From positions 70,459-134,458 of the forward strand of contig CAYZMM010000004.1 in NCBI GenBank assembly GCA_964479535.1: a DNA stretch of 64,000 nucleotides, given 5' to 3'. The notes under the pieces are model-generated. The model worked only from the letters and a program-made list of their open reading frames with translations. It searched no databases and had not been told where the DNA came from. A program made the position numbers and the translations under genes. The first letter of the stretch is position 1. Each line of letters opens with the position of its first letter. Source of the stretch: an uncultured Thermodesulfobacteriota bacterium (GTDB lineage Bacteria; Desulfobacterota; DSWW01). Positions 4,546-42,834 of the stretch are shown here, piece by piece.

Positions 4546-4666
4546 GAAGGCCGCGGCACACGGGGGTTGCCACGTCGGCTGCGCCTCCTCGCAATATCCC
4601 AGGCTCACGGATACCGGGCCTTTCCCCTTTGACCTTCAACAGCCTGTCCCCGCATCCGGCACTGCT

Positions 4667-9840: not shown

Positions 9841-9940
9841 GATTCAGGTGGCGGCCGGCAAGCATCCTCGAGTGAGGGACCTTGCGAGGAGGCGCAGCCG
9901 ACGCGGCAATCCCCCGCATCCTACACGGAGGAGATGTGGC

Positions 9941-15682: not shown

Positions 15683-16365
15683 AGGATGCCGGAATCGAAT
15701 GCCGCGAGGTCACCTTTGCGCCCCGGGACCGGCCCGAGGGCAACCGGCCGATCCTGGACGGGGTGAATGCGAAGTTCGAACCGGCCCGGCCCGCCCTGAT
15801 CACGGGCCCCATGGGGGCAGGCAAGACCACCCTGCTCCACGTCCTTGCCGGCCTGCTGAGACCCACCCGGGGCGAGGTGCTCGCAGGGGGCCGGCCCGTC
15901 TCCCGCTGGACGGCCGCCCACCGCGATCTGTGGCGACGGGAAGTGGGGATCGTGTTTCAGGCCTCCAGCCTGTGGCCGGAGCTGACGGCCCTCGAGAACG
16001 TCCTCCTGCCCGTGATCCCCCGGGGCCGACGAACGGCAGCGATCCGTGCACAGGCCCTCGAGGCCCTGAAGGCGGTCGGGGTTTCCGACCTGGCCGGCCG
16101 GAGCGCACGCCTGCTTTCGGGAGGAGAGCGTCAGCGGGTGGCCGTTGCAAGAGCCCTTGTCTCGCGGCCCGCCTTTCTCTTCGTCGATGAACCCACGGCG
16201 CATCAGGACGACCACGGTGTCCGCCACGTTCTCGACGCGGTCTCCTCCGCCACCGCACGCGGCGCTCTGCTGGTGGTCGCTTCCCACGATCCCCGGGTGG
16301 CGGAAGACCACCGGCTCACGGATCGCTGGCACTTGAAGGCCGGACGGCTGGAGCGGATCCGATGA
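15679..16365 (+). CDS. ABC transporter ATP-binding protein
   Basis: It carries Walker A GPMGAGKTT, an LSGGERQRVAVARAL signature and a Walker B FVDEPT motif. The start at 15679 overlaps the permease stop. The long N-terminal extension of ORF 14629 is rejected as spurious. Confidence 0.85.
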   Translation: MKDAGIECREVTFAPRDRPEGNRPILDGVNAKFEPARPALITGPMGAGKTTLLHVLAGLLRPTRGEVLAGGRPVSRWTAAHRDLWRREVGIVFQASSLWPELTALENVLLPVIPRGRRTAAIRAQALEALKAVGVSDLAGRSARLLSGGERQRVAVARALVSRPAFLFVDEPTAHQDDHGVRHVLDAVSSATARGALLVVASHDPRVAEDHRLTDRWHLKAGRLERIR

Positions 16366-17393
16366 TCTGGCATCCACTGCTCCTCTCCGTGCTGACCCTG
16401 GACGTCCTCGCGCTCTTCTTCCTCCTCGCCGGACTGCTCTCGGCCCTGCAGATCGCCGCCCGCTGGTCGCCCGCGTCGGTGGAGAAAGAACAACTCGCTC
16501 TCGAAAGGAGAGCCGAGAGCGCTTCCATCCAGGGCCGCACCTGCGCCGTCCTTCTTCTCACCTCCACCCTGATCCTCATCATCGCAATCAGCGGGGTCCT
16601 GCCGGATCTCGTCCCCGGGGCCATGTGCGGAACAGGGGTGCTTCAGGCCACGCAGGGCGCAGGGGGGCGGGCACTCGCCCTGCGGGCACTCGCCCTGGGC
16701 CTGGTCGCCGCATGGCACCTCGTGGACCGGCTCAACCGGGCACGGCCCGGATCCCCCCTCGCTCTCACCGCATCCCGGGCCCTCCTGCTCGCCGGCCCGG
16801 TGGTGTTCCTGGCGGTGTACGACACGTTCCGGGCCGTCCTCCGGCTGGACGTGCACCGCCCCGTGGACTGCTGTTCGGTGGTCTACGATCAGATCCGACC
16901 CGCGGGTGAGGCAGTGGGAACATTCGGTCTGCCGGAGGCGTACGGGGTGTGGGGGCTCGCTCTGGGGGGAATCGTGATCCTGTTTCTGGGCGTGCGCCTC
17001 CGGCGCTCCCGCCGGCAGCAGGAACCCCGGAGAACAGCGCCCCTCGCTCTCGTCACCTTGTGCTGGGTTCCTTTGGCCGCAAGCGCGCTCGTCCGATCCC
17101 TTGCCGCGTATCACTACGGCGTGCTGCAGCACCGATGTCCCTGGTGTCTCTTCCTCCCGGAACACAAGCTGGTCGGCTACCTGCTGTTCGGCGCCCTGAC
17201 CCTGACCGCCGTGGAAGCAGGCGCCGCCTTCCTCTGCTCGAAGATCGCCGCCACCCTTCCCGCACTCGAACCGGACACCCTGAAACGGTCCCGTGCAGCC
17301 GGGCTGCGCATCACCGCAGCAACCGCCCTCTTCCTCGCCCTGTCAGGCCTGCCTCCGCTCCTGTGGCGCCTTCGGTTCGGCGTGTGGATGTGA
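16362..17393 (+). CDS. polytopic membrane protein (about 8 TM) with CC and C-P-W-C motifs; possible membrane thiol-disulfide oxidoreductase
   Basis: The start overlaps the ATPase stop. It has conserved-looking Cys pairs (DCCSVVYD, HRCPWC). Confidence 0.45.
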   Translation: MIWHPLLLSVLTLDVLALFFLLAGLLSALQIAARWSPASVEKEQLALERRAESASIQGRTCAVLLLTSTLILIIAISGVLPDLVPGAMCGTGVLQATQGAGGRALALRALALGLVAAWHLVDRLNRARPGSPLALTASRALLLAGPVVFLAVYDTFRAVLRLDVHRPVDCCSVVYDQIRPAGEAVGTFGLPEAYGVWGLALGGIVILFLGVRLRRSRRQQEPRRTAPLALVTLCWVPLAASALVRSLAAYHYGVLQHRCPWCLFLPEHKLVGYLLFGALTLTAVEAGAAFLCSKIAATLPALEPDTLKRSRAAGLRITAATALFLALSGLPPLLWRLRFGVWM

Positions 17394-17458
17394 TGCAGCA
17401 CCCGGCCTGAAGGAGCGTTCCCGGGCAGGTTCTTGATGCGTTCGATCCCTCTGTTGTT

Positions 17459-17893
17459 CTACGGGATCGTCACCCTGGCCTTGGCGACAGCCACCTTCTC
17501 TCCTTCCTGATTCTCAGCCCAGAGGTCCACGACAACGAAACTCTTCGACTTCCGCCTGGGGTGCTTCTCGCTGACGATGCCTCGGCACGTTATGGCGTCT
17601 CCCGGCCGCACAGGGTGAATGAATTTGCTCTCCAGTCGCGTTATGAACCCACCGCTTTCATAGCACCAGTCGGTGACCACCGAGGTCATGAAGGAAAACG
17701 TGCACATGCCGTGCGCGATGGTGGTTCCCTTCCCCAGCAGGTTGATCCGTTTCGCCCAGGCAGGGTCAACGTGGATGGGGTTGTAGTCCAGGGATGCGGT
17801 GGCATTTCTTGTGATCACTTTCTGGTCTACGTACTTGACCTGCGTCGGAAGTTCCATATCCGGGGGAATGCTCTCAAAGGTACCCGTCGCCAT
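17459..17893 (-). CDS. MaoC-like (R)-specific enoyl-CoA hydratase/dehydratase, hotdog fold
   Basis: 144 aa. An LDYNPIHVDPAWAK motif is present. Confidence 0.75.
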   Translation of the reverse strand: MATGTFESIPPDMELPTQVKYVDQKVITRNATASLDYNPIHVDPAWAKRINLLGKGTTIAHGMCTFSFMTSVVTDWCYESGGFITRLESKFIHPVRPGDAITCRGIVSEKHPRRKSKSFVVVDLWAENQEGEKVAVAKARVTIP

Positions 17894-17931
17894 TTGTCAC
17901 CTCCTGCGTTTGTACGGGAATCTGCCTGAAT

Positions 17932-18483
17932 TCAAAACGTGTGCGATTCTTCCCCATGGGACCTCGGCAAAATCAACGTAATCCACCACTTCGCAACCGG
18001 TTGGTCGTTCTGGTTGAAGAATTCGGTCTCATACGTGAGGTATCGCTTTCCACGCTTTACCCATTTGTCAAAGAACCTCGACTTGGCCCGGATGGTGTCT
18101 CCGAGGCGTATCGGTTCGTAGAATTCAATGACTTGGCCGGGGTTGATCGCTCCCGGTGTACGGACCCAGCTTCCCGGCCCGCTGTCGCCCGTCAGCCAGA
18201 AGCCCACAGGGGTCAAGAACAGCGGATGAGCAATGAGACCGCCGAAGGGGCCTTGTTCGGCGGCCTTCTTGTCGTTGAAGAGCGGGTTGTCGTCGAGGAT
18301 TCCTTCCGAATAGGCCAGGATGTCCTCTTCCTCGACTTCGAAGGTGCGCTCGATCTCGTACACGCCATCGAAATCGACGTCCTCCCATTTCTCGTACTCC
18401 TCGGCTTTCTTGAAGAAGTCGACTTCAAAAGCCTTCTGCTTCTTCGTCGTGAGAAAGTCCTCAATGCGAACGTCATCGTCCAT
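17932..18483 (-). CDS. hotdog-fold dehydratase, N-terminal-type partner subunit (FAS1 DH-N/HadA-like)
   Basis: 183 aa. It is adjacent to and co-oriented with the MaoC-like gene. Confidence 0.55.
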   Translation of the reverse strand: MDDDVRIEDFLTTKKQKAFEVDFFKKAEEYEKWEDVDFDGVYEIERTFEVEEEDILAYSEGILDDNPLFNDKKAAEQGPFGGLIAHPLFLTPVGFWLTGDSGPGSWVRTPGAINPGQVIEFYEPIRLGDTIRAKSRFFDKWVKRGKRYLTYETEFFNQNDQPVAKWWITLILPRSHGEESHTF

Positions 18484-18572
18484 GGTCTCTGCCCCCCATC
18501 GTTTTAGGGTTTACGGTTCTGCCATATAGAGGAGAGTTTCCCGGCCATTGTCCCGGCTCCTTTCTAGAATCT

Positions 18573-19212
18573 TTACTTGCCCTCGCCGATGTTCTCGTAG
18601 ATTTCTTTGGTTAGCGCCGTGAATTCCGACTCGCCGGGGAGAAGCACGTAGAGGGGATCGCGTATCCTTTCTCTATCAAAGCCTTCCCTCTTCAACGGCC
18701 CCTTTATGACTTTCATCGTGCCGGTCGTTGGCAGTTCCGACGAAATCCTCAGGAACTTGGGCACTGCAAAATCTGCAAGGTTGTCCCTTAGAATCGCGGT
18801 GAATCCACCCAGATCGTTTCTTGAACGCCTTCCATATTTCGGGGCGAAGGCCGTTGCCGACGATGGCTTCCACAGGGTTGGCAGCGTCATCCGGCTTCTC
18901 GGGTTGGTTCATGAGGTATTGGCACATCTCCCCGATGTAACCGAACTTCCTGGCGTGGAATTTCCTTATGTCGCTCCAGAACCGGGAAGCACTGAACTTC
19001 CTTCTTATCGCTATGGCTGCCCCCCTGTACATCACCGGCGCCCAGGATACGCCTAATGCATGGTTATGATAGAACGGCAGAGGAACGTAGAGCGTATCGT
19101 TCGGCTGCAAATCCAGCAGCTCGGAGAAGGCGTAGCCACCCGACAGTACAGCGGCGTGAACCCTGATCTGACTTGGGCCGCTCAGGGACCAGAGCAGAAA
19201 CACTGCATCTTC
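18573..19212 (-). pseudogene. fatty-acyl-CoA synthetase (FadD/FATP-like AMP-binding enzyme): 3' two-thirds only, and frameshifted
   Basis: Two overlapping ORFs encode the AMP-binding middle and C-terminal motifs (YVPLPFYHNHALG; PTTGTMKVIKGPLKREG). The whole N-terminal third is absent and the break abuts cyclase copy 1. Confidence 0.65.
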
Positions 19213-19289
19213 ACCTTTTTTTGGACATCTACCGTATGTCGTGCGGCATCCCCCTTTCGGTCGTAATTGCGACCAATGCCTGACGGGGT

Positions 19290-22121
19290 TTACACCAGCT
19301 CCTCGAGAAGGGCCTTCGCCTCCTTCAGGTCGCGGGCCTCTTGCTTGCGGCCCTGCTGCTGCCACAGGCGGGCGAGGCCCGTCGCCGCACGAAGCTCATA
19401 GGATTTCGCCCTCTGGCGCCGCGCTACCTCGAGCGCATCGCGGAAGGACGCCTCCGCCCCTGCCGGGTCGGCAGCGGTACGAGCGAGGAGCAGCTCGGCC
19501 TTCGTGCGGTGCAACTCCGCCTCCGCATAGCGTTCGCCGGTCTTGGTCGCGAATTCCAATCCCTCCGCTACGACGGCGAGGCCTTCCTCCACTTGCCCTG
19601 CCTTCCCGTGTGCCACGGCCAGAGTAGCAAGAAACCACGAGAATGCGGCCAACGCGCCCCTAGCCCGCAGACCCTCGAGAATGGAGCGCATTCCCGTGAT
19701 TCCTTTCTCCAGCTCTCTCCGCTCTGTAAGTGCCGCGAAGCGACACATGGTTCCGAATGCTAGCCAGTATGGAAAACCATGCTCTTCCGACAGAACGATC
19801 AGTGCTTCGGTCACCTTCAGGGACGCCTCCGAGTCTCGGCGCAGCAAGTGAACGATGCCAAGACCATTAAGGGCTGTTGCCTCACTGAAGGTATGAGACA
19901 GCTCCCGCGCCAGGGCGAGTGCCTCCCGGGCTCTTGTCAGGGCCTGTTCCGGATAGCCGAGCCAGAAAAGCGTCCAGCTCGAGTAGAACAGCGCAAGTAC
20001 GCCAACATTCGAAGAGGCCGAGAGGTAATCATGGCCCCGGTGTTTTTTGGGGTCGTAGAGGCCCAGCAGTTCTTCGAGATGTTCTCGGGCCTCGCAATGC
20101 TCCCCCCGCAAGAAGGATGTCGCGCCCATGGCGACCAGCGCGCAAAGGATTTGTCCCGGATCACCTGTCTGGCGGGCCACACGCAGCAGTTCCTCTGCTA
20201 GCAGGCGCGACTTGTCATGCTCAGCACGCATTTGTTGGCCCGCCCGCAGTCCATTCAAGGCTTCGAACAAATGAGAAGCATCCCCAAGGCGCCGAGCGAG
20301 ATCTCTGGCGCGCGCATACGCCTGCTCCGTCTCCACAGACGCGAAGCCCTCGGTCACGTGCAAGGCCTGGCCGAGTGTGCACTGCAGGACCAGATCCAGT
20401 TCGTCGCGCTCCCGGGTCTCGGGCAGAGTCTTCTGCTGTTCGAGAGCCTGCCTGAGGCGATCGATCGCCTCCCCGTAGGCCGAGCGCTCGATGGCCTGCT
20501 CTCCGGCCAGCCGGAGGTACTCGACCGCCTTCGGCGTGTTCGCGCTCCGGCCGTAGTGATGGGCCAGTTCCTCGTAGTGGGCGTCGAGTCCCTGAGGGTT
20601 GAGGGCCTCGATGGCCTGGCCGGTGCGCTCGTGCAGCACGCGCCGACGCTCCCTGAGAAGGGAGCCGTACGCCACCTCCTGCGTGAGGGCGTGCTTGAAG
20701 GTGTACTCCGGGTCCGGAAAGGCCGGCCGCTCGTAGATGAACTCCGCTACCTGCAGATGCGAGAGCCCGCGGGAGAGCTCCTCCAGGAAGAAGGGGTTTC
20801 CCTGGGTCTTGGAAAGGATGAGCCGGTCCAGGGCCTCCCGCTCTTCTCCCGCCCCTTCGCCCAGAAGGGCACCGAGCAGCTCCCTTGACTCCTCGGCTCC
20901 GAAAGGATCCAGCCTGAGCTGCGTGTAGCAGGTCCTGCTCCCCCAGCCGTGCCCGTACTCGGGCCGGTAGTTGACCAGCAAGAGGAGCCTCGCCGTGGCC
21001 ACACTGTCGACGAGCACGTCCAGGAAGGCCTGCGTCTCGGAGTCGATCCAGTGGAGATCCTCGAAGAGGAGAACACAGGGCTGGTTGAGGGTCTCCCGCA
21101 CCAGCACGCGTTTCACCGCCTCCAGGGCCCGCTGCCGCCGGATCTGCGGGTCCATCTGCTCGAGGGAGCCCGTCCTGTCTCCGATGCCGAGGAGGGTGAA
21201 GAGATACGGCAGGGTGTCCTCGAGCGTGCGGTCCAGGGCGAGCACGGTCCCGGTGACCTTCTCCCGCCTCCGGCGCTCGTCGTCTTCCACTCGGATTCGG
21301 AAATAGCCCTTCAGAAGCTCGAGCAACGGCAGGTAGGCGGATGCCTTGCCGTGGGAGACCGAGAAACCCTCGAGCACGCGGCAGCCGCTCCCGACGAGCC
21401 CCTTGAACTCGTGGAGCAGGCGCGACTTGCCCACACCCGCCTCGCCCAGCACCGCCAAAATCTGCCCACGTCCCGCTTGGGCTGCCTCCCACGCCCGCTC
21501 GAGCTCTCCCATCTCCCGCTCTCGGCCTACGAAGCGAACCAGCCCCCGCCTTGCCGAGACCTCCAGGGGGCTTCTCAGCGGACCCACGCCCTGCAACTCA
21601 TAGACACGCAGTGGCTCCGAGGTTCCGGCGATTTTGGACTCCCCCAGGTCCAGGAGTTGGAAAAAACCCTCCACGAGCCGCGCCGTGTGCTGGCTCAGGT
21701 AGGCGTGGCCCGGCTCTGCGAGCTGCTCGACTCGCTGCGCTAAACCCACCGTGTGCCGCTGAGCCGTGTAGTCCATGCGCAGGTCATCTCCGATCTTCCC
21801 GACCACCACCTCCCCGGAATTCAGGCCGAGACGGACCGAGAAGTTCAAGCTCCGATCCATGCGAAGCTCTTGCGCGTACTTCCTGAGTTGCTCGCAGAGA
21901 GCCAGCGCCGCGCAGCAAGCCCTCTGGGCGTGATCCTCGTGCGCGATCGGCGCACCGAACAGCGCCATGATGCCGTCGCCCGTGTACTGGTTCACCGTTC
22001 CCTCGAAGCGGTGCACGCCGTCTGCGAGATTCTGGAAGAACCGGTCGAGGATGCGGTGCCACTCCTCCGGGTCGACCTGCTCGGCCAGCTCCATCGACCC
22101 CTTCACGTCGGCGAAGAGCAC
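19290..22121 (-). CDS. class III nucleotidyl cyclase (CHD) - AAA/STAND NTPase - TPR protein, paralog 1 (N-terminally truncated; no Zn-ribbon; GTG start)
   Basis: The FADVKGS...GDGIMALFG metal-binding Asps, Walker A GEAGVGKSRL and C-terminal TPR-like helices are all present. Homology to the other copies continues upstream of the only start codon. Confidence 0.8.
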   Translation of the reverse strand: MLFADVKGSMELAEQVDPEEWHRILDRFFQNLADGVHRFEGTVNQYTGDGIMALFGAPIAHEDHAQRACCAALALCEQLRKYAQELRMDRSLNFSVRLGLNSGEVVVGKIGDDLRMDYTAQRHTVGLAQRVEQLAEPGHAYLSQHTARLVEGFFQLLDLGESKIAGTSEPLRVYELQGVGPLRSPLEVSARRGLVRFVGREREMGELERAWEAAQAGRGQILAVLGEAGVGKSRLLHEFKGLVGSGCRVLEGFSVSHGKASAYLPLLELLKGYFRIRVEDDERRRREKVTGTVLALDRTLEDTLPYLFTLLGIGDRTGSLEQMDPQIRRQRALEAVKRVLVRETLNQPCVLLFEDLHWIDSETQAFLDVLVDSVATARLLLLVNYRPEYGHGWGSRTCYTQLRLDPFGAEESRELLGALLGEGAGEEREALDRLILSKTQGNPFFLEELSRGLSHLQVAEFIYERPAFPDPEYTFKHALTQEVAYGSLLRERRRVLHERTGQAIEALNPQGLDAHYEELAHHYGRSANTPKAVEYLRLAGEQAIERSAYGEAIDRLRQALEQQKTLPETRERDELDLVLQCTLGQALHVTEGFASVETEQAYARARDLARRLGDASHLFEALNGLRAGQQMRAEHDKSRLLAEELLRVARQTGDPGQILCALVAMGATSFLRGEHCEAREHLEELLGLYDPKKHRGHDYLSASSNVGVLALFYSSWTLFWLGYPEQALTRAREALALARELSHTFSEATALNGLGIVHLLRRDSEASLKVTEALIVLSEEHGFPYWLAFGTMCRFAALTERRELEKGITGMRSILEGLRARGALAAFSWFLATLAVAHGKAGQVEEGLAVVAEGLEFATKTGERYAEAELHRTKAELLLARTAADPAGAEASFRDALEVARRQRAKSYELRAATGLARLWQQQGRKQEARDLKEAKALLEELV

Positions 22122-22448
22122 CGTGACCTGCTTGCGCTCGCCCTCCAGTGCGGGCCTGGACTGCAGGATCCTGTCGGCCAGGTGCTTGGGGGTGTAGGAC
22201 TGAGGCCGGGAATAGTCGATGGGCGCAGCCGTTCTACACTTTAGAAATACGGAGTGGACCCTGTCAAGAGAATCCTTGAGGTCATGAAACGAGGAAAAGC
22301 CTATACGAGTCCGGAAGGAAACCGAGGGGCAGGGGAAATCCGAATCTCCTCTGTGTCAAGTCATCTGAGGACCAAAGGGGATTAACGGCCACTTCCCGAC
22401 GAGAGTCGGCATGCTCCCGATTGACAGCACCCCTCAGGAAGCCTTGAA

Positions 22449-22676
22449 TCACGTCTTCTTCAGGACCGATGCAGGGAGTTCTGCTTGATCGAGGATTGAC
22501 TTGATGGTTTTGGGAGCGAGAGTTTCCTTGGCATGAACCGGAACCGTAACGTGGAGTCTACCGTCTTCGCTCTCGAAATGGTGGTGACTGCCTCTCACGT
22601 GACTCAGAGAGAATCCATGTTTCATCAGGATCCTGCAGAGTTGCTTTCCTGTTACTCTTCCGAGTTTCCGAGTCAA
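22449..22676 (-). CDS. hicA: HicA toxin (mRNA interferase)
   Basis: 75 aa with the RGSHHHF...VTVPVH HicA signature. It has a 4-nt overlap with hicB. Confidence 0.8.
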   Translation of the reverse strand: MTRKLGRVTGKQLCRILMKHGFSLSHVRGSHHHFESEDGRLHVTVPVHAKETLAPKTIKSILDQAELPASVLKKT

Positions 22677-22906
22677 GCCGCGACCTCTATTCTGATTCTC
22701 GCATCCGGCTCAAACTCTCTGGGAACAGGCTTCTTCGCCTTCCTGAGACCCTCGATGTGACAGAGGATAGCCTCTCTCGCCCTGTCTATGCATTGCTCGA
22801 TGTCCTTCCCTTGCGTAACGCAGCCCGGAAGGACAGGAACCGTCACCGTAAACATCTTAGCCTCTTTGTCGTAATACAACTCGATGTTGTAAGTCAGTTT
22901 TCTCAT
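22673..22906 (-). CDS. hicB: HicB antitoxin (UPF0150 / RNase-H-like fold)
   Basis: YNIELYYDKEAKMFTVTVPVLPGCVTQG is typical of HicB. The start is at 22906, with 22924 possible. Confidence 0.75.
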   Translation of the reverse strand: MRKLTYNIELYYDKEAKMFTVTVPVLPGCVTQGKDIEQCIDRAREAILCHIEGLRKAKKPVPREFEPDARIRIEVAA

Positions 22907-22995
22907 ATCAAAATCCTCCAGCATCGAGTAATCTGGATGAGGCTCCGGTAGGCAGCAGCCCTTCACGACACCGAAGCCTGACCAGCAACAACCAA

Positions 22996-23024
22996 ATACT
23001 ACAGAAGGTCCGAAGAAATGACAA
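22996..23024 (-). promoter_or_regulatory. putative sigma70 promoter for hicBA (TTGTCA-17-TAGTAT on the minus strand)
   Basis: It sits roughly 70-90 nt upstream of the hicB start in locally AT-rich sequence. Confidence 0.3.
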
Positions 23025-23099
23025 TTGCGAACCGGTCCCTATCTCGCTTGCGCATTGAAATGATTCAAGATAAGGGTCGTGTGTTCTCCCTGGGGCGCC

Positions 23100-23330
23100 C
23101 ATGCCGGACAGACCTGCTTCCGTCCGTTGCCGGCAACTCCGCCAGCTCGTTCCTCACCTTGGCCGGCTCGGTCAGGTGTCCCAGTCGCTCGAAGATCACC
23201 AGGGCATCTGTCAGGTATTTTCGTGCCTCCTGCACGTTCCCCTGCTGCTTGTGGTACCGGCCCATGCCGGAGTAGTCAAGGGCCAGTTCGTTTTCGGCCT
23301 TGATCTCTCTGTTGATGGATACGCTCTCCC
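23100..23330 (-). pseudogene. orphan C-terminal TPR fragment of a further cyclase-STAND-TPR paralog (remnant)
   Basis: ENELALDYSGMGRYHKQQGNVQEARKYL...VRNELAELP closely parallels the extreme C-terminus of copy 4 (ENELALAYASMGRFYKMQGNMEKTREYL...VRKELADLP). Confidence 0.5.
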
Positions 23331-23601
23331 CAAGCTGAGACGATGATTGCGAGTTTGACCCTCTTACCGTCTTTCCTGCCCGTTCTACTCGGTGGACTTT
23401 AAAGCCCCCGTAAGGCAAAATCGTAAAAAGGAGGACAAACTTGCTTGAACGACCATAATCCTGTCTTCCTAACGCGGCTTGCACCTCAGAGGGAACGTCA
23501 GGATGATCAAGCCCGCCACAAGATGGTCTTGTCGACTTCTCCCTCTCGCTACGAATGTCTACTTCCTGTCGCTCTTGATGGTGCCCAGTGTCTGACGAGG
23601 T

Positions 23602-26600
23602 TCATGCCAGCTCGTCGAGAAGGGCCTTCGCCTCCTTCAGGTCGCGGGTATCGAGGCCCTCGGTGAACCAGTCGTAGACAGGTGCGAGTAGATCGCGGGC
23701 CTCTTGCCTGCGGCCCTGCTTCCGCCACAGGCGGGCGAGGCCCGTCGCGGCACGAAGCTCATAGGATTTCGCGCTCTGGCGCCGCGCTACCTCGAGCGCA
23801 TCGCGGAAGGACGCCTCCGCCCCTTCCGGGTCGGCAGGCGTACGAGCGAGAACCAACTCGGCCTTTACGCGATGCAATTCCGCCTCGCCCCAGTGTTCGC
23901 CGGTCTTCCTCACGAATTCCAGTTCCTCCGCGGCGGCGGCAAGCCCTTCCTCCACTTGCCCTGCCTTCCTGTGTGCTCCGGCCAAGAGGGCAAGATACCA
24001 CGACGATCCCACCACTGCCCCCCTGGCCCGCATACCCTCGATAACAGAGCGCATTCCGGCGATTCCCTCCTGCAGATCGCCCTGCTCAGCGAGAGCCGCG
24101 CCGCGAAAGCCGGCTCCGAATGCCAGATACGAAGGAAACCCCTGCTCGCTCGATAGGGCGATCAGCGTTTCTGCTGTCTCAAGGGAGGCCTTCGACTCGC
24201 GACGAAACATGTGGACGATACCGAGACCGAGGAGGGCAGTTCCCTCACTGAAGGCATGGGAGAGTTCCCGGGCAAGGGCGAGGCCCTGCCGGGCTCTTGT
24301 CAGGGCCTGATCCGCGTACCCGAACGGGAACAGCGTCCAGCTGAAGAAAAGGAGCCCCCATATGCCAACATTGGCTGTGGGCTTGAGGTATTCGTGGCCC
24401 CGGTGCTTCTTGGGGTCGTAGAGGCGGAGGAGCTCTTCGAGATGTTCCCGGGCCTCGTAAAACTCTCCCCGATAGAAGGATGCCACGCCCATGCCGAAGA
24501 GCGCACGCAGGAGTTGTCCCGGGTCGTGTGACTCGCGGGCCACACCGAGCAGTTCCTCGGCGAGCAATTGCGACTTGTCATGCTCAGCACGAGCGATTTG
24601 GACCGTCCGCAGTCCGTTCAACGCCGCAAACAACTGAGAAGCGTCCCCCAGGCACCGGGCGAGATCTCGGGCGCGCACATACGCCTGCTCCGCTTCCGCG
24701 GACGCCAAGCCCTCGATCACGAGCAAAGCCTGGCCGAGTGCGGACTGCACGACCAGCTCCAGCTCGTCCCGCTCCCGGGTGTCGGACAGGGTCTTCAGGA
24801 GTTCGAGAGCCTGCCTGAGCCGGGCGATAGCCTCGCCGTACGCCGAGCGCGCCACCGCCTGCTCACCGGCCAGCCGCAGGTACTCGACAGCCTTGGGCGT
24901 GTTCGCGCTCCGGCCGTAGTGATGGGCCAGTTCCTCGTAATGGGCGTCGAGCGCCTGAGGGTTGAGAGCCTCGATGGCCTGCCCGGTGCGCTCGTGCAGC
25001 ACGCCCCGGCGCTCCCGGAGTAGCGACCCGTACGCCACTTCCTACGTGAGTGCGTGCTTGAACGTGTACTCCGGGTCCGGAAAGGCCGGCCGCTCGTAGA
25101 TGAACTCCGCTGCCTGCAGATGCGAGAGCTCTCTGGAGAGATACTCCTCGGCCTCTCCGGCCACGGCGCGGATGAGGCCCAGGGAGAACTCCTTGCCGAT
25201 CACGGCCAGGGTCTGCAGCAGGTCCTTCTCCCGGGAAGGCAGCCGGTCGATGCGTGCCCCGATCACCCCCTGAACCGTGGCCGGGATGTGGAGTTCTGTC
25301 GGGGATCTCTTCAGACGGTAATGACCCGGCTCCCCTGCGAGCACCCCTTCCTCGACGAGCGTCTGCACCAGCTCCTCCAGGAAGAAGGGGTTTCCCTGGG
25401 TCTTGGAAAGGATGAGCCGGTCCAGGGCCTCCCGCTCTTCTCCCGCCCCTTCGCCCAGAAGGGCACCGAGCAGCTCCCTTGACTCCTCGGCTCCGAAAGG
25501 ATCCAGCCTGAGCTGCGTGTAGCAGGTCCTGCTCCCCCAGCCGTGCCCGTACTCGGGCCGGTAGTTGACCAGCAAGAGGAGCCTCGCCGTGGCCACACTG
25601 TCGACGAGCACGTCCAGGAAGGCCTGCGTCTCGGAGTCGATCCAGTGGAGATCCTCGAAGAGGAGAACACAGGGCTGGTTGAGGGTCTCCCGCACCAGCA
25701 CGCGTTTCACCGCCTCCAGGGCCCGCTGCCGCCGGATCTGCGGGTCCATCTGCTCGAGGGAGCCCGTCCTGTCTCCGATGCCGAGGAGGGTGAAGAGATA
25801 CGGCAGGGTGTCCTCGAGCGTGCGGTCCAGGGCGAGCACGGTCCCGGTGACCTTCTCCTGCCTCCGGCGCTCGTCGTCTTCGATCCGGATTCGGAAATAG
25901 CCCTTCAGAAGTTCGAGCAACGGCAGGTAGGCGTATGCCTTGCCGTGGGAGACCGAGAAGCCCTCGAGCACGCGGCAGCCGCTCGTAAGCTGCTCTTTGA
26001 ACTCGTAGAGGAGGCGCGACTTGCCCACACCCGCCTCGCCCAGCACTGCCACGATCTGCCCGCGGCCCGCCCGGGCTGCCTCCCAGGCGCGCTCAAGCTC
26101 TCCCATCTCCCGCCGCCGGCCCACGAAGCGCACAAGCCCTCGCCTCGCGGCTACCTCCATTTTCGTTCGCAGGGGGCCCACGCCCTGCAGCTCGAAGACA
26201 CGCAGCGGTTCCTGCACGCCCTGCACGTTGAAGCGGCCCAGATCGCTGAGGCGGAGCGCCGCGTAGCACGCCCGCTGCGCATGGTCCTCGTGGGCAATGG
26301 GCGCACCGAACAGCGCCATGATCCCGTCGCCCGTGTACTGGTTCACGGTTCCTTCGAAGCGGTGGACCCCATCGGCCAGGATCTGGAAGAAACGGTCGAG
26401 GATGCGGTGCCACTCCTCCGGGTCCACCTGCTCGGCCAGCTCCATGGACCCCTTCACGTCGGCGAAGAGGACGGTCACCTGCTTCCGCTCCCCATCCAGT
26501 GCGGACCCGGACTGCAGAATCCTGTCGGCCAGGTGTTTGGGCGTGTAAGACTGAGGCTGCAAGTGGTCTATCGTGGCGGCTTCAACAGGCTTTCTCAGGT

Positions 26601-26742
26601 CGTGGCCGCATCTATCACAGAACCTGCTTTCCGGTGTATTCAGGTTTGCGCATTGAGGGCAGGAGAGTTCCAGTTTGCTCCCGCACGCCTTGCAGAAGGT
26701 GGCCCCCTCTCTGTTTTCGGCGTGGCAAGTGGGGCACTTCAT
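23602..26742 (-). pseudogene. Zn-ribbon - cyclase - AAA/STAND - TPR paralog 2, disrupted by an in-frame TAG at 25039-25041 and an in-frame deletion of about 243 bp in the cyclase domain
   Basis: The two ORFs 25042..26742 and 23602..25038 share a frame and are separated only by TAG, where copy 1 has CAG. The cyclase domain lacks roughly 81 aa present in copies 1, 3 and 4. Confidence 0.75.
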
Positions 26743-26778
26743 CCAGGTCCTCCAAGCCGATTCAGGCGAATCGATGCC

Positions 26779-27183
26779 CTATAGCAATTTCACCTGTCTC
26801 AGGGCCTTGACCTTCCTGTGAAGCTTCTTGTCTGACGTGACGAGATCACACGCAAGCCGCCTTGCCAGCTCGACATATGCGGCATCGTAGAGGGTGATTC
26901 CATAGCGTCTGGACAATCGGATGGCGCTCGAGAACTCCTCGAATCCAAGGTCAAAGACCTGGAGGTCAAAATTCCACAGCATGGAGAACACCTCGGAGAC
27001 CGCCCCTGCATCCAGCCTTGTCCGCGTTAGGAGCACGTTGGCCGCTTCATAGAAGAACAGGTCCGGCACGGCGATCGGCTCTTCTCCGGAAACGTGCACG
27101 TCCCTGTAACGAAGGGCTCGATCACTGCCTTCCTCGTTCTCAAAGATCCACTTGAGGACGACCGATGCATCCAATACGATCAT
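26779..27183 (-). CDS. vapC: VapC PIN-domain toxin
   Basis: MIVLDASVV...YEAANVL...YDAAYVELA...TSD gives the PIN acidic residues. A 4-nt overlap with phd is present. Confidence 0.8.
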   Translation of the reverse strand: MIVLDASVVLKWIFENEEGSDRALRYRDVHVSGEEPIAVPDLFFYEAANVLLTRTRLDAGAVSEVFSMLWNFDLQVFDLGFEEFSSAIRLSRRYGITLYDAAYVELARRLACDLVTSDKKLHRKVKALRQVKLL

Positions 27184-27458
27184 CTGCTGTCTCTCATCTC
27201 GCGGATTGCCCCCGTCACATCCGTTCGGCTGGTCTCTTTCCCATGTCGCTCTTTCCACTTCTCCATGCCTGCACAGATCTCCTGAAGTTTCCGGCCCCTC
27301 TCCTTTTTCAGTATCCTCTCCTCATACTCATCTACGGAAATGATGACCGCGAGGGGCTTGTTTGCCCTTGACACGATGAAGCGCTCCTTTCGGTCGTGAA
27401 CCTCGTTCAGAATGCTTCCGAGCTTCTTCCTTAGGTCCAGCGCAGTCAGTCTCTTCAT
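27180..27458 (-). CDS. phd: Phd/YefM-family antitoxin
   Basis: 93 aa. FIVSRANKPLAVIISVDEYE is classic for Phd/YefM. Confidence 0.75.
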   Translation of the reverse strand: MKRLTALDLRKKLGSILNEVHDRKERFIVSRANKPLAVIISVDEYEERILKKERGRKLQEICAGMEKWKERHGKETSRTDVTGAIREMRDSR

Positions 27459-27480
27459 TGTCTTCTCCCTTCTGGGTTCA

Positions 27481-27510
27481 ACTATACTATGAGCTATCAT
27501 AGTCACTATG
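27481..27510 (-). promoter_or_regulatory. putative phd-vapC operator: inverted repeat CTATGA-N4-TCATAG plus ACTAT direct repeats immediately upstream of phd
   Basis: The palindrome at 27487-27502 lies 30-50 nt upstream of the phd start codon. Confidence 0.35.
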
Positions 27511-27732
27511 TCAATGAGATCTGGCCTGGGCTCCCTCCGAATGCGCCCTAAGACGTGATGCACGCGAGGGCCTCCCGGGCGCGGGTGAGCCAGTAGCTCC
27601 AGGGGGCGTTCATTTCCAGGCATACGGCTTCCGCTTTTTTCAGGTTACCCACGGCTTCTTCTCTTCTCTCCGGATCGGCGAACAGCCCCCCGAAGCGGTA
27701 GGGTGGATGAAGCGAAGCGAATCCGCCACAGT

Positions 27733-30700
27733 TCACGTAAGCTCCTCGAGAAGGGCCTTCGCCTCCTTCAGGTCGCGGGTGTCGAAGCCTTCCGTGAACC
27801 AGTGGTAGACCGGTGCGAGCAGCTCGCGGGCCTTTTGCTTGCATCCCTGCTGCTGCCATAGGCGGGCGAGGCCCGTCGCCGCTCGAAGCTCATATGATTT
27901 CGCGCTCTGGCGCCGCGCTACCTCGAGCGCATCGCGGAAGGACGCCTCCGCCCCTACTTGGTCGGCGGGTGTATGACCGAGAAGCAACTCGCCTTTTACG
28001 CGATGCAACTCTGCCTCCATCATGCGCTCGTCGGTCTTTGTCACGAATTCCAATCCCTGCGCCACGAGAGCGACACCTTCCTCCACTTGTCCTGCCTTCC
28101 TGTGTGCCCGGGCCAAGAGGGCAAGAAACCACGAAGATCCCAGGACTGCGCCCCTGGCCCGCATACCCTGGAGAACCGACCGCATCCCGGCGATTCCCTC
28201 CTGCAGCTGTCCCTCCTCGGTGAGCGCCTCGAGGCGAAGCCAGGCTCCGAATGCCAGATAGTACGCAAACCCATGCTCGCTTGAGAGATTGATTACAGCC
28301 TCTGCTGTCTGAAGAGATGCCTTAGAGTCGCGCCGCTCCAGGTAGATACGGCTAATACAGAATAGGGCAACTGACTCACTGAAGGGATCAGAGAGCTCCC
28401 GCGCCAGGGCGAGCCCCTCCAGGGCCCTCTTGAGGGCCTGGACCGGGTAACCGAGGGAGACAAGCGTCCAGCTGAAGAAGAAGAGGCCCCATACGCCAAC
28501 ATTCGCTGAGGCTGAGAGGTAATCATGGCCCCGATGTTTCTTCGGGTCGTAAAGGCCGAGGAATTCTTCGAGATGCTCTCGGGCCTCCGAAAACTCTCCC
28601 CGATAAAAGGATGTCCCGCTCATGGCATGCAGCGCGCGCAGGAGTTGTCCCGGGTCGCGTGACTCGCGGGCCACACGGAGCAGTTCCTCGGCGAGCAGAC
28701 GAGCTTTGTCATGCTCAGCACGTACCTGTTGGCCCGCCCGCAGTCCGGTCAACGCTGCAAACACCTGAGAAGCATTCCCCAGGCACTCAGCGAGATCCCG
28801 GGCGCGCAAATACGCCTGCTCTGCTTCCACGGACGCGAAGGTCTCGGTTACGTCCAAGGCCTGGCCGAGTGCGGACTGCAGGGACAGCTCCAGTTCGTCC
28901 CGCTCCCGGGTCTCGGGCAGGGTCTTCAGGAGTTCGAGAGCCTGCCTGAGCCTGTCGATCGCCTCCCCGTAGGCCGAGCGCGCCACCGCCTGCTCACCGG
29001 CCAGCCGCAGGTACTCCGCGGCCTTGGGCGTGTTCGCACTCCGGCCGTAGTGGTGGGCCAGCTCCTGGTAGTGCTCGTCGAGTGTTTCGCTGTAGACCTT
29101 CTCGATCGCCTGACCCACCCTCTCGTGTATTGCCCCGCGCCTCTCTCGCAGCATGGACCCGTACGCCACCTCCTGCGTGCGTGCGTGCTTGAACGTGTAC
29201 TCCGGGTCCGGAAAGGCCGGCCGCTCGTAGATGAACTCCGCTGCCTGCAGATGCGAGAGCTCTCTGGAGAGATACTCCTCGGCCTCTCCGGCCACGGCGC
29301 GGATGAGGCCCAGGGAGAACTCCTTGCCGATCACGGCCAGGGTCTGCAGGAGGTCCTTCTCCCGGGAAGGCAGCCGGTCGATGCGGGCCCCGATCACCCC
29401 CTGAACCGTGGCCGGTATGTGCAGCTCCCCCGGGGATCTCTTCAGACGGTAATGACCCGGCTCCCCTGCAAGCACCCCTTCCTCGACCAGGGTCTGCACC
29501 AGTTCCTCCAGGAAGAAGGGGTTTCCCTGGGTCTTCGCCATGATGAGCCGTTCGAGCTCGGTCCGATCTGCGCTTGCCTCATCCCCCAAGAGGGCTGTTA
29601 GTAGCTCCCGAGCCTCCACATCCCCCAGTGGATCCAGCCGGAGCTGTGTGTAGCAGGTCCTGCTCCCCCAACCGTGCCCGTACTCGGGCCGGTAGTTCAC
29701 CAGGAACAGGAGCCTGGCCGTGGCCACGCTGTCGACGAGCACGTACAGGAAGGCCTGGGTCTCGGAGTCGATCCAGTGAAGATCCTCGAAGACGAGCACA
29801 CAGGGCTGGTCGAGGGTCTCCCGCACCAGCACGCGCTTCACGGCCTCCAGGGTCCGCTGCCGCCGGATCTGTGGGTCCATCTGCTCGAGCGGGCCGGTCA
29901 GGTCTCCGATGCCCAGGAGGGTGAAGAGATACGGCAGGGTGTCCTCGAGCGTGCGGTCCAGGGTCAGCACGGTCCCGGTGACCTTCTCCCGCCTCCGGCG
30001 CTCGTCGTCTTCTAGGCCGATTCGGAAATACCCCTTCAGAAGCTCGAGCAACGGCAGGTAGGCGTATGCCTTGCCGTGGGAGACCGACAAGCCCTCGAGC
30101 ACGCGGCAGCCGCTCGTAAGCTGCCCCTTGAACTCGTAGAGCAGGCGCGACTTGCCCACACCCGCTTCGCCCAACACCGCCACAATCTGGCCGCGGCCCG
30201 CCTGGGCGGCCTCCCACGCCCGCTGGAGCTGCTCCATCTCCCTCTGCCGGCCCACGAAGCGCGAAAGCCCCCGTCTTTCGGCTACCTCCATTTTCGTTCG
30301 CAGGGGGCCCACGCCCTGCAGCTCGAAGACCCGCAGCGGTTCCTGCACGCCCTGCACGTTGAAGCGGCCCAGATCGCCCAGCCGGCAGAGGCCCTCGACC
30401 ATCTTGGCCGTGTGCTCGCTGAGATAAGCCTTTCCCGGCTCCGCCAGTTGCTCCATGCGCGCCGCAAGGCCCACGGTCTGGCCCTGGGCCGTGTAGTCCA
30501 TCCGCAGGTCGTCGCCGATCTTACCGACCACCACTTCGCCCGAGTTGAGCCCCATCCTGACCGAGAACCGAAGCCCCTTCTCCCGTTTCAACTCTGCCGC
30601 GTACCGCTGCAGTCCCTCGCTCAGGCGGAGCGCCGCGTAGCAGGCCCGCTGAGCGTGATCCTCGTGAGCGATCGGCGCCCCGAAGAGCGCCATGACACCG

Positions 30701-31116
30701 TCGCCGGTGTACTGGTTCACCGTTCCCTCGAAACGGTGCACGCCGTCCGCAAGGATCTGGAAGAACCGGTCGAGGATCCGGTGCCACTCCTCCGGGTCGG
30801 TCTGTTCAGCCATTTCCATCGAGCCCTTTACGTCTGCGAAGAGGACGGTGACCACTTTCCGTTCGCCCTCGATCGAGCTGCGGGTCGTGAGGATCTTTTC
30901 GGCAAGGTAGTTCGGGGTGTAGGACCGAGGTTGGGAGTAGTCGACGGCGGGCGTTGCTACGGGCTTGGTCAGGTCATGGGCGCAATCGCCGCAGAACTTA
31001 TCGTTCGGAAGAACTTCAGCCCCGCACTGAGGGCAGGCGAGGACGAGTCTCGCCGCACATGCCCGGCAGAACTTCTTGTTATCCGGGTTGTCCGTCTGGC
31101 ACTGAGGGCATTTCAT
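27733..31116 (-). CDS. double Zn-ribbon - class III nucleotidyl cyclase (CHD) - AAA/STAND NTPase - TPR protein, paralog 3 (intact, 1127 aa)
   Basis: Two CPxC...CxxC ribbons are followed by a full CHD domain, a P-loop NTPase and long TPR-like C-terminal helices. No interruptions are seen. Confidence 0.85.
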   Translation of the reverse strand: MKCPQCQTDNPDNKKFCRACAARLVLACPQCGAEVLPNDKFCGDCAHDLTKPVATPAVDYSQPRSYTPNYLAEKILTTRSSIEGERKVVTVLFADVKGSMEMAEQTDPEEWHRILDRFFQILADGVHRFEGTVNQYTGDGVMALFGAPIAHEDHAQRACYAALRLSEGLQRYAAELKREKGLRFSVRMGLNSGEVVVGKIGDDLRMDYTAQGQTVGLAARMEQLAEPGKAYLSEHTAKMVEGLCRLGDLGRFNVQGVQEPLRVFELQGVGPLRTKMEVAERRGLSRFVGRQREMEQLQRAWEAAQAGRGQIVAVLGEAGVGKSRLLYEFKGQLTSGCRVLEGLSVSHGKAYAYLPLLELLKGYFRIGLEDDERRRREKVTGTVLTLDRTLEDTLPYLFTLLGIGDLTGPLEQMDPQIRRQRTLEAVKRVLVRETLDQPCVLVFEDLHWIDSETQAFLYVLVDSVATARLLFLVNYRPEYGHGWGSRTCYTQLRLDPLGDVEARELLTALLGDEASADRTELERLIMAKTQGNPFFLEELVQTLVEEGVLAGEPGHYRLKRSPGELHIPATVQGVIGARIDRLPSREKDLLQTLAVIGKEFSLGLIRAVAGEAEEYLSRELSHLQAAEFIYERPAFPDPEYTFKHARTQEVAYGSMLRERRGAIHERVGQAIEKVYSETLDEHYQELAHHYGRSANTPKAAEYLRLAGEQAVARSAYGEAIDRLRQALELLKTLPETRERDELELSLQSALGQALDVTETFASVEAEQAYLRARDLAECLGNASQVFAALTGLRAGQQVRAEHDKARLLAEELLRVARESRDPGQLLRALHAMSGTSFYRGEFSEAREHLEEFLGLYDPKKHRGHDYLSASANVGVWGLFFFSWTLVSLGYPVQALKRALEGLALARELSDPFSESVALFCISRIYLERRDSKASLQTAEAVINLSSEHGFAYYLAFGAWLRLEALTEEGQLQEGIAGMRSVLQGMRARGAVLGSSWFLALLARAHRKAGQVEEGVALVAQGLEFVTKTDERMMEAELHRVKGELLLGHTPADQVGAEASFRDALEVARRQSAKSYELRAATGLARLWQQQGCKQKARELLAPVYHWFTEGFDTRDLKEAKALLEELT

Positions 31117-31175
31117 CCCGGCGCGTCCCGCATGGAGGATGGGTGGGAGTGACTCGGGGTGCTCGCGCTCGGGGG

Positions 31176-31365
31176 TGTTCTAAATGCTAGAAAATAAAGA
31201 TAAAGGAGTCAATAATTGTTTTGCGTCAGGTAGGGCGGGGGCCGTCTCGATGTGAGATGATGGCAAATTTCAACCGATTTGTTTTTTCCCGTATGTTTCA
31301 AATACTTGTGTTCATCTTGATGGATTGGCACGGCCGTTGCTCTACCCTGATCCAACAACACCCTC
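31176..31365. repeat. divergent-promoter module, copy A; homologous to 38968..39236, with a degenerate third copy near 22240..22290
   Basis: GTTCTAAATGCTAGAAAATAAAGATAAAGGAGTCAATAATTG and GATGGATTGGCACGGCCGTTGCTCTACCCTGATC are conserved between the copies. Confidence 0.6.
31326..31341 (+). promoter_or_regulatory. sigma54 (RpoN) -24/-12 promoter, TGGCACG-N4-TTGCT, oriented toward the MMPL-CNB gene
   Basis: A perfect match to the sigma54 consensus with correct spacing. The identical element recurs at 39191-39206. Confidence 0.55.
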
Positions 31366-31548
31366 TTCTCGCTGAACGAGGCGATGGAGCACTCCATCCT
31401 CCTGGGATTCTGAGCATTGGAAGTTCCCCCGGGGCCTTCCGCCGATTCACCGCAGGGCGGTGGATCGCGTTGACACCGGATTCCGGACTCCCCTATACTT
31501 CACCCCAGGCGGGCACCTCTCATCTTCTCTCAAGAAGATGGAGAACGT

Positions 31549-34296: not shown

Positions 34297-34341
34297 AGCG
34301 AGTTGCCCGAACAGCCTTGCCGGGGAACCAGGGAGGCAGAG

Positions 34342-35169
34342 ATGAAGATCACCTTCTATGGCACCCGAGGCTCCACGCCCATACCTGAACCGGATTACTT
34401 CCAGGTCGGCGGCAACACACCGTGCGTCCTGTTCACTTCCGACAACGGAAGAATCGCCATCTTCGACGCGGGCACGGGAATCCGCAAGCTGGGCAACGAA
34501 CTGCTGGCTCGCGGGCACCAGCAGTTCGACAATATCTTCATCGCCCTCTCACATACCCACTGGCATCACATTCAAGGGTTCCCCTTCTTTCTCCCCGCAT
34601 ACGATCCGGCCCGCCACTTCACCATCACCATTATTGGAAGAGAGCGAGAGACGAAGAACCTCGAGGACATCTTTTCGACGCAGATGCAGCGCGAGTTCTT
34701 CCCCGTTCCCCTGGAGAAGATGGGGGCGAAGATGACCTTTTCCACACCCGAGACAACCCGTTTTACCACGCCGATTACAGGAAACAAGGTGATTACGCTC
34801 AGGCACAACCATCCTGGTGGGGCCTACAGCTACCGCGTCGAGGGTTCCGGAAAGACCTTCGTCTACTGCACGGATGTGGAACACACGGATGGGATCGATC
34901 CGAACATCGTCGCCCTCGCCAGAGAGGCCGACCTTCTGGTCCATGATGCACAGTTCACCCCGGAGGAGCTGAAGGAGAAGAAAGGCTGGGCCCACAGCAG
35001 TTGGGAGCAGGCGGTGGAGGTGGCGGAGCAATCCGGCGCAAAGAGACTGGCGCTCTTTCATCACGATCCGGAACACAGCGACCCCTTTCTCTTCCGAATG
35101 GAGAAAGCGTGTCAGAAGCGGTTCGCAGAGGCCTTTCTTGCCCGAGAGGGAATGGAAATCGAGTTATAG
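34342..35169 (+). CDS. MBL-fold metallo-hydrolase (atypical HTHWHH motif); candidate cyclic-nucleotide phosphodiesterase by context
   Basis: SHTHWHH, a CTDVEH motif and a C-terminal HHDPEH follow the MBL pattern. A GGGAGG RBS precedes the ATG at 34342. Confidence 0.55.
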   Translation: MKITFYGTRGSTPIPEPDYFQVGGNTPCVLFTSDNGRIAIFDAGTGIRKLGNELLARGHQQFDNIFIALSHTHWHHIQGFPFFLPAYDPARHFTITIIGRERETKNLEDIFSTQMQREFFPVPLEKMGAKMTFSTPETTRFTTPITGNKVITLRHNHPGGAYSYRVEGSGKTFVYCTDVEHTDGIDPNIVALAREADLLVHDAQFTPEELKEKKGWAHSSWEQAVEVAEQSGAKRLALFHHDPEHSDPFLFRMEKACQKRFAEAFLAREGMEIEL

Positions 35170-35502
35170 ATCGTCGTTTTCCAAGCGAGGTGCACGTGTG
35201 TAAGGATGTCGTCCAAGCCCCCATGCGGCCATGAGGCAGGGTTCGATATCATTGTGGAGAGGCCACAAGAACTTGACCAGCTCCGCAATTGGAGAAGTAG
35301 CGTTTTCGGCGTGGCCCTTCGTGAAGGCAAGGTTCTCCATGAAGCGGCGTGGTGATCCTGAAGTGGCGGCCTGGCTGAAGAAGGCACAGGGTGATCTCCG
35401 TATGGCTCGTCCGGCCATCGAGACGGAAGATCCGCTTTAGGACCAAGCGTGAATTCGGCGGCATTCAGAATGGAGTCGTCGCCTGCCAACGGCCTGAATT
35501 CC

Positions 35503-39764: not shown

Positions 39765-39883
39765 GTTTATTTGCCGCAGAGGTCCTGTGCCCCCAAGGAC
39801 TACTCGCCCTTACGTTGCTCTCTCTGGTGCTCATCCTGCCCCGGAGGGGGACACTGTTTCGCCTTTTGGAGCGAGAAGCTGAC

Positions 39884-42649: not shown

Positions 42650-42834
42650 GATAACCGACTTATCCCTGGACTCGGCGGTTGAGAAATCTCGTTGCCGCAC
42701 CCCCGGTGCAACTTCGTGAAATGGCTCCTTCCCTTCCTGTTTCTCTTTCCGGGCTCAATGGGGTGCCGGGTGGATCGGTTGCATTCGGCGGCTTCGGTCC
42801 TCTTGCCTGGCCGATGATGGGCGCGGGGCGCTGC

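Follow-up and report, generated by a model that had tools for sequence, protein, structure and literature searches.

Long-chain acyl-CoA synthetases of the FATP/FadD6 type (NCBIfam PRK08279/NF006134, with FadD6 as NF038342) belong to the ANL superfamily of adenylate-forming enzymes. They are encoded by a continuous open reading frame (ORF) of about 600–630 codons and carry both a central FATP block and the P-loop-like adenylation motif [ST]SGTTGxPK, which is motif A3 of the ANL enzymes. Here we describe a broken gene of this type in a stretch of 64,000 nucleotides (nt) from an uncultured Thermodesulfobacteriota bacterium (contig CAYZMM010000004.1 of assembly GCA_964479535.1, positions 70,459 to 134,458), hereafter the window. 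The remnant occupies 18567–19167 on the minus strand, between two intact hotdog-protein genes and the first of four nucleotidyl cyclase paralogues. We conclude that it is very likely a non-functional ligase pseudogene that has been hit more than once, lying inside a decaying, recombination-prone accessory region.

The similarity of the remnant to FATP/FadD6-type ligases is far above chance, in agreement with the first-pass annotation of the window, which had recognised a truncated FATP/FadD-like gene here. Two overlapping minus-strand ORFs carry it. The longer (18676..19365, 229 residues) matches Pfam AMP-binding (E = 3 × 10−10, profile positions 184–311 of 384) and NF006134/PRK08279 (E = 6.9 × 10−44, model positions 230–346 of 605); the shorter (18573..18890, 105 residues) matches NF006134 at model positions 521–602 (E = 3.4 × 10−18), and FadD6 is the runner-up family for both. 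Our own hidden Markov model (HMM), built from 10 full-length homologues from genome loci and 616 positions long, aligned at 236–355 to window positions 19167–18811 and at 534–616 to 18815–18567, in the other frame. Searches by tblastn with individual full-length homologues recovered the identical two blocks, at 55–65% identity for block 1 and 45–58% for block 2.

Both blocks are colinear with the NF006134 and NF038342 models. Block 1 (18808..19167, minus strand), delimited by NF006134, the HMM and tblastn, corresponds to the middle of the N-terminal domain and reads LPFYH ... RKFSAS ... YIGEMCQYL ... GNGLRPEIWKAFKKR. Block 2 (18567..18815, minus strand), delimited by NF006134 and the HMM, lies in a different frame and holds the final ~83 codons, which belong to the C-terminal domain. 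The A10-type lysine region at the end of that domain is kept, with AVPKFLRISSELPTTGTMKVIK aligning to homologue C-termini at 45–58% identity. Family-typical stretches preserved across the two blocks are LPFYH, RKFSAS.FW, YIGE.C.YL, GNGLRPEIW..FKKR and the C-terminal AVPKF.R...PTT.T.K. In all, ~200 of ~616 ligase codons are left, about one third of the gene in two pieces.

Three lesions account for the rest. The first is the loss of the N-terminal ~235 codons: the HMM match begins at position 236, past the P-loop motif, and detectable ligase homology stops at ~19167–19173, short of position 19212, to which the gene had previously been taken to extend. The P-loop-like motif was already reported as absent, and we agree, as the sequence upstream of His-19158 scored only 12–20 against nine homologue segments, values equalled by 50–486 of 500 shuffles. 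Two candidates for a vestigial P-loop, a tblastn alignment with locus L065 reaching 19218 and the string FCSGP*AA in another frame (19176–19199), were indistinguishable from chance.

The second lesion is a deletion of ~178 central codons (positions 356–533 of our HMM, 347–520 of NF006134), the central and hinge motifs included. The deleted block contains the FATP signature DRxGDTFRWKGENV, whose GDTFRWKGENV part was invariant in 11 aligned homologue fragments. The first-pass annotation had held that the central and C-terminal motifs survive, split over two frames by a frameshift. The C-terminal end and the two frames are indeed there, but the central motif block is gone and the frame change coincides with the ~178-codon deletion, not with a simple indel. 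At the deletion junction (18808..18815, minus strand) the two blocks overlap in tblastn and HMM coordinates by 8 nt, GATCTGGG on the coding strand, which reads R-S-G when taken as the end of block 1, where homologues show R-F-G, and D-L-G when taken as the beginning of block 2. This double reading suggests that the deletion may have arisen through an 8-nt microhomology.

The third lesion is a nonsense mutation, in which a Tyr codon has become TAA at 18573–18575, two codons ahead of the natural TAG stop at 18564–18566. The C-terminus of the remnant reads GEGK-TAA-R-F-TAG, and -YRF or -YKF is the ending of 7 of the 10 full-length homologues; the alignments continue across GK*RF, opposite GKYRF or GEYRF in the homologues. 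No correction of indels can recover a full-length ligase from this locus, because only 806 nt separate the start of the neighbouring hotdog gene (18483) from the cyclase stop (19290) and an intact ligase needs ~1850 nt. The missing parts were not found elsewhere in the six frames of the window either (tblastn at E ≤ 10, hmmsearch --max). The sole other match in the window was a distinct, intact AMP-binding gene at 37360–38937, 21–27% identical.

Judged against the family, the remnant lacks four of five characteristic features. Its two ORFs score 150.4 and 65.5 bits, against curated cutoffs of 625 for NF006134 and 975 for FadD6; family members have a P-loop (TSGTTGxPK), which is missing here along with the first ~235 residues and the ~178 central residues that include the FATP block; and there is no continuous ORF of ~600–630 codons. 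Only the C-terminal end is as in the family. The remnant is a pseudogene derived from the NF006134/FadD6 family, not a member enzyme.

The ligase loci screened, with flanks of up to 6 kb, numbered 80 from genomes and 32 from metagenomes. The closest intact ligases form a clade of 630-residue proteins on metagenome contigs (L091–L097) and on a contig of a metagenome-assembled genome (MAG) labelled 'uncultured delta proteobacterium' (L055). Their identity to the remnant is 62–66% over block 1 and 56–59% when the 195 surviving columns are taken together. We examined the context of five of them (L055, L091, L092, L093, L097), and in each a conserved gene of 393 codons, from its sequence putatively HMG-CoA-reductase-like, lies upstream of the ligase, downstream neighbours vary and the hotdog pair is missing; these ligases are not orthologues in conserved synteny. 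An intact orthologue was not recovered: the protein search gave only fragments of at most 378 residues and 63% identity, and nothing exceeded 70% identity in the genome scan (best 65%) or the metagenome scan (best 66%). Elsewhere among the ligase loci, a Promethearchaeota MAG contig (L033) carries four tandem FATP-type copies within ~8 kb (tblastn matches at ~1373, 3347, 5459 and 7441).

We then considered the junction with cyclase copy 1. The ligase had been described as truncated exactly where that copy ends, yet ~123 nt separate the end of ligase homology from the cyclase stop at 19290, and the two do not abut. A three-way DNA alignment of the cyclase copies showed that copies 1 and 2 remain similar for ~38 nt beyond the stop, to ~19252, and that copy 3 diverges straight after it. 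This shared 3' flank (19252..19289, minus strand) marks the end of the duplication unit. Between it and block 1 lies an 84-nt spacer (19168..19251) that resembles neither ligases nor the cyclase repeat. The spacer must hold the ligase 5' breakpoint, because ligase homology ends at ~19167 and the cyclase repeat at ~19252. It has no significant repeat elsewhere in the window. Short direct repeats, which it had been suggested to look for at 19213–19289 and the other island edge, did not rise above chance there, nor did any at 19150–19300 or at the internal junction, and a promoter and terminator scan of 17300–19500 gave nothing beyond shuffle expectation.

As the region borders three to four near-identical cyclase repeats, a common cause of assembly breaks and mis-joins, the ligase–cyclase junction might be a chimeric join or a binning error. 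We regard this as highly improbable. A Logan contig from an independent assembly (L001, SRR7048227, 2071 bp) is identical to window positions 17256–19326; it runs through the internal deletion and the interval holding the 5' breakpoint, takes in 37 nt of the cyclase gene and ends exactly where the multi-copy repeat starts. With both lesions and the junction on this contig, an artefact of assembly is unlikely, and the internal deletion and the nonsense codon in any case sit in unique sequence.

The first-pass annotation had placed the left boundary of an accessory island at this junction. Synteny with three relatives (L125, L126, L127) instead puts it at 17394..17458, between the stop of a membrane-protein gene and the stop of the 144-residue hotdog gene, where the guanine-plus-cytosine (GC) content drops from ~0.70 to ~0.55. 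By the same comparison the right boundary is at 42650..42834, between a PAS histidine-kinase gene (39815–42649) and an Ion_trans_2 gene (42835–43548). The lineage-specific variable region therefore extends over ~17394–42834 (~25.4 kb), between conserved convergent genes at 16362–17393 and 42835–43548. The membrane-protein gene (16362–17393) closes an FtsX/ABC/membrane operon, and orthologues of it lie on long contigs; P0137 (76% identity) and P0139 (73%) are closer orthologues than those in the three syntenic loci. In L125 and L126 (66% identity) the orthologue is followed after 25 nt by the convergent Ion_trans_2 gene and then by a 293-residue gene and a 706-residue molybdopterin oxidoreductase gene; in L127 (68% identity) a single DUF362 gene lies between the membrane-protein and Ion_trans_2 orthologues. 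Orthologues found by tblastn in these three loci cover the right flank (Ion_trans_2 at 42835–43548, 65–67%; LCM-like at 43701–44597, 73%; Mo-oxidoreductase at 44588–46708, 83%), and synteny on the left includes PaaK-like (87–90%), aminotransferase (81%), FtsX (69–72%) and membrane-protein (66–68%) genes. By contrast, none of seven island genes used as queries matched L123–L127, and the hotdog, cyclase, MMPL, MBL, AMP-binding and PAS-kinase genes of the window had no tblastn match in the syntenic loci. Because the sequence on either side of 19290 is absent from L125–L127, this position is a junction within the region, which carries both the hotdog pair and the remnant as cargo.

The site downstream of the membrane-protein gene differs among relatives. 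It holds nothing in L125 and L126, DUF362 in L127 (3980–5420), and genes from Omp85 to IS21 IstB in L123 and L124 (L123:11039–17000). By these gene orders, it behaves as a recurrent variable hotspot. In this respect the region resembles plasticity zones, in which the same intergenic site between conserved genes has differing content across relatives. It differs from integrase- and tRNA-associated islands: no tRNA or tmRNA gene was found in the 64 kb, no flanking direct or inverted repeats were seen (the best k-mer common to the island ends was 8 nt, inverted), and no integrase or transposase was detected among the island ORFs scanned against Pfam, a partial scan in which integrases were not exhaustively sought. 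The region is not a classical site-specifically integrated island.

These boundaries bear on an alternative in which a ligase–hotdog–hotdog operon is resident in the core genome and the cyclase island was inserted into, or rearranged against, its ligase, leaving the remnant as the left boundary at ~19290. The arrangement offers it some support: the remnant has the same orientation as the hotdog pair, from which 83 nt separate it, both are lower in GC than the left flank, and there is a real junction no more than ~85 nt away from where the cyclase repeat ends. We nevertheless consider this alternative distinctly unlikely. Synteny contradicts it: among the relatives, only 25 nt or a single gene separates the core membrane-protein gene from the Ion_trans_2/LCM-like/Mo-oxidoreductase genes, with no hotdog pair in between, which makes the pair accessory too. 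The N-terminal part of the ligase is absent at the other end of copy 1 and of the island, and no target-site-like repeats were found. Thus the earlier suggestion of an insertion or rearrangement junction holds for a rearrangement, between ~19167 and ~19252, and is not supported for an insertion, since the missing N-terminus is nowhere in the window.

The hotdog genes provide a further test of a ligase–dehydratase operon. The upstream gene (17932..18483, minus strand), 83 nt downstream of the natural stop of the remnant, encodes an intact 183-residue protein that is FAS1_DH_region/MaoC-like and in HadA-like position (Pfam and NCBIfam). It has 105 homologues among the matches listed, the best of them 94% identical, and 16 members in its 90%-identity cluster; relatives at least 90% identical include P0257, P0258, P0261, P0267 and KPK21214.1, encoded on contigs of 5.6–16.6 kb. 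Its partner (17459..17893, minus strand) is an intact 144-residue MaoC-like hotdog dehydratase (Pfam MaoC_dehydratas, E = 9.7 × 10−21). Compared with mycobacterial HadA/HadB (NF040624, NF010246), the pair gives weak matches in the order HadA-like, HadB-like, at 35–39 bits against curated cutoffs of 180–350, an analogy of architecture only.

We read nine hotdog-pair loci as DNA (74–94% amino acid identity) and a tenth, the P0033 contig, from its gene table only. Both genes are kept in L002–L006 and L088; at the ends of L087 and L090 the first gene is followed by part of the second. None of the nine loci shows any ligase similarity. Upstream of the pair there is an aminotransferase or cut gene on the opposite strand (L003, L004), a second hotdog pair (L005), a 32-residue ORF (L006), a DUF3237 gene (L088, L089), a 288-residue ORF with no family match (L090), a zinc-ribbon/TPR gene (L087) or, from the gene table, a 386-residue protein with TPR matches (P0033); the L002 contig starts 100 nt upstream of the first hotdog gene, which places its upstream gene outside the contig. 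In the reverse direction, a close homologue of the hotdog pair is present at none of the 112 ligase loci within the flanks covered; at one of them (L011) there is a distant MaoC-like match, 26–34% identical, ~2.2 kb upstream of the ligase match. Hence the hotdog pair occurs intact, at up to 94% identity, without a ligase partner, and a conserved ligase–dehydratase operon is not supported. The view of the hotdog pair as the rest of such an operon gains no support from these counts, and no intact version of it turned up in a related genome in either search direction.

The closest hotdog relative found, L087 (94% amino acid identity), also argues against a resident operon, as a gene of the cyclase family lies directly upstream of its pair. 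The pair there follows a short protein with a double zinc ribbon and TPR (L087:1–486), whose gene is similar in DNA sequence to the N-terminus of cyclase copy 3 (31066–31154), the copy-4-type C-terminal TPR (35516–35691) and a fragment at 23114–23319. From this context, the hotdog pair appears to travel with the cyclase family. The L087 upstream protein looks like a gene of that family minus its cyclase and AAA domains. A 3' remnant of the same kind of TPR gene survives in the window at 23114–23325, downstream of cyclase copy 2.

Base composition allows for a different origin of the block, in which the hotdog pair and an already truncated 3' part of the ligase were acquired together horizontally, the 5' break being the end of the transferred fragment. 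The 17.4–19.2 kb block has a GC content of 0.52–0.57, against 0.70 in the left flank and 0.62–0.68 in the cyclases; relatives of the hotdog pair and the nearest ligases lie on contigs of 39–55% GC, and no close relative of the remnant was found. However, the GC content at third codon positions (GC3) of the block (0.65–0.76) is near that of the genome (0.76–0.90), and base composition is a weak sign of foreign origin, the compositional case for a recent transfer being correspondingly weak. Moreover, no ligase or ligase fragment lies upstream at any other hotdog-pair locus, and neither mobility genes nor repeats flank the block. Such a transfer would leave the internal deletion and the nonsense codon unexplained, so that decay in situ is needed anyway. 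We therefore think joint acquisition unlikely.

Our preferred account is a stepwise loss within the region. A complete ligase would once have been present in an ancestor of the region. Its 5' ~235 codons would have been lost with a breakpoint in 19168–19251, leaving ~85–120 nt between the remnant and the 3' end of cyclase copy 1. The ~178 central codons would have been deleted at 18808–18815 with a change of frame, maybe via the 8-nt microhomology, and the Tyr codon would have mutated to TAA two codons ahead of the natural stop. The two deletions may have been illegitimate or microhomology-mediated events within the recombination-prone array of cyclase paralogues. Deletion or rearrangement is simpler than insertion because the N-terminal 235 codons, expected at the other edge after an insertion, are absent from the window; it is also favoured because the neighbours are damaged too, namely cyclase copies 1 and 2 and the TPR fragment at 23114–23325. 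The remnant would now have no function, except possibly that of carrying the upstream non-coding sequence of the hotdog pair. In keeping with a pseudogene, its 105-residue ORF forms a singleton cluster at 90% identity among ~15 billion proteins, and the nearest ligases are no more than 62–66% identical.

Several observations weigh against this conclusion. Neither surviving block has internal stops or frameshifts, and the decay is not extreme. A residual role for the annotated 105-residue ORF (18573–18890) is formally possible. The co-orientation of remnant and hotdog pair, their 83-nt spacing and their similar GC3 (0.65–0.71 and 0.73–0.76) are compatible with a former, lineage-specific co-transcribed unit. 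Finally, because no close ligase orthologue (>70% identity) was found, we can only infer what the ancestral state was, where exactly the breakpoints lie and in which order the changes took place.

Beyond the remnant, the window contains four paralogues with a double zinc ribbon, a class III nucleotidyl cyclase domain, AAA_16 and TPR at 19290–37104 (~19.3–37.1 kb), three of full-length type and a partial fourth. Copy 1 (19290..22208, ORF 19290–22121, minus strand), as defined by Pfam matches, repeats and alignment, is without the N-terminal double zinc ribbon and has in-frame deletions of 77 and 17 residues relative to copy 3; on this comparison it is probably decaying too. The 17-codon (51-nt) deletion lies near its C-terminus (19340–19345, corresponding to 23652–23702), and a CCCGCGA direct repeat flanks the segment in copies 2 and 3, which looks like the result of slippage or microhomology. 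In copy 2 (23602–26742) the cyclase domain has lost 81 residues, and there is an in-frame stop at 25042–25044. Copy 3 (27733–31116, 1127 residues) is the sole intact copy, and copy 4 (35503–37104) is split, with a TPR C-terminus of a different type. We also considered a Pycsar system. Its sole basis is a match of PADLOC PycC models to the generic cyclase domain in copy 3 (best E = 5 × 10−25, residues 76–224), which probably reflects general class III cyclase homology, and we did not accept it as evidence for such a system.

Toxin–antitoxin modules lie between the cyclase copies. A HicA/HicB type II pair occupies the spacer at 22449–22966, and a PIN-domain toxin gene (26779–27258) with a Phd/YefM antitoxin gene (within 27180–27623) sits in the one separating copy 2 from copy 3; at 0.50–0.56, the two spacers are lower in GC content than the cyclase genes. 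Adjoining the intact copy 3, at 31549–34296, is a gene for an MMPL/RND-type transporter fused to a C-terminal cNMP_binding domain (E = 1.4 × 10−19). Their adjacency and domain content make a cyclase–effector pair possible. A 43-nt direct repeat (81% identity) occurs upstream of this transporter gene (31306–31348) and upstream of a PAS hybrid histidine kinase gene (39171–39213); it could be a common regulatory element or a chance match. A GC-rich element of ~45–50 nt (GGGGATTGCCGCGTCG...GCGCAA...) is present three times, at 4562–4612, 9864–9914 and 52922–52964, in both orientations and with 81–82% similarity. All three copies are outside the variable region, and the element is possibly a repetitive extragenic palindromic (REP)-like intergenic repeat.

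We also entertained a broader interpretation, in which the hotdog pair is a functional partner of the zinc-ribbon/cyclase/AAA_16/TPR family and the cyclase and toxin–antitoxin array is a signalling or defence locus that turns over rapidly through recombination. It is suggested by the position of the pair directly downstream of such a gene in L087, and probably also on the P0033 contig, and we hold it to be a doubtful extension of the data. If it were true, the ligase remnant would be the relic of an earlier arrangement of the cargo.

For annotation, the 105-residue ORF at 18573–18890, which both the NCBI- and the Logan-derived parts of the protein collection list as a predicted protein, should be treated as part of a pseudogene, and the accessory region should be given limits of ~17.4–42.8 kb, with the hotdog pair as cargo and the cyclase edge not taken as the boundary. 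The remnant is an ordinary pseudogene with multiple hits among other decaying genes, and nothing about it is mechanistically new. The locus illustrates the well-known way in which deletions, truncations and nonsense mutations build up in an array of paralogues surrounded by toxin–antitoxin modules.

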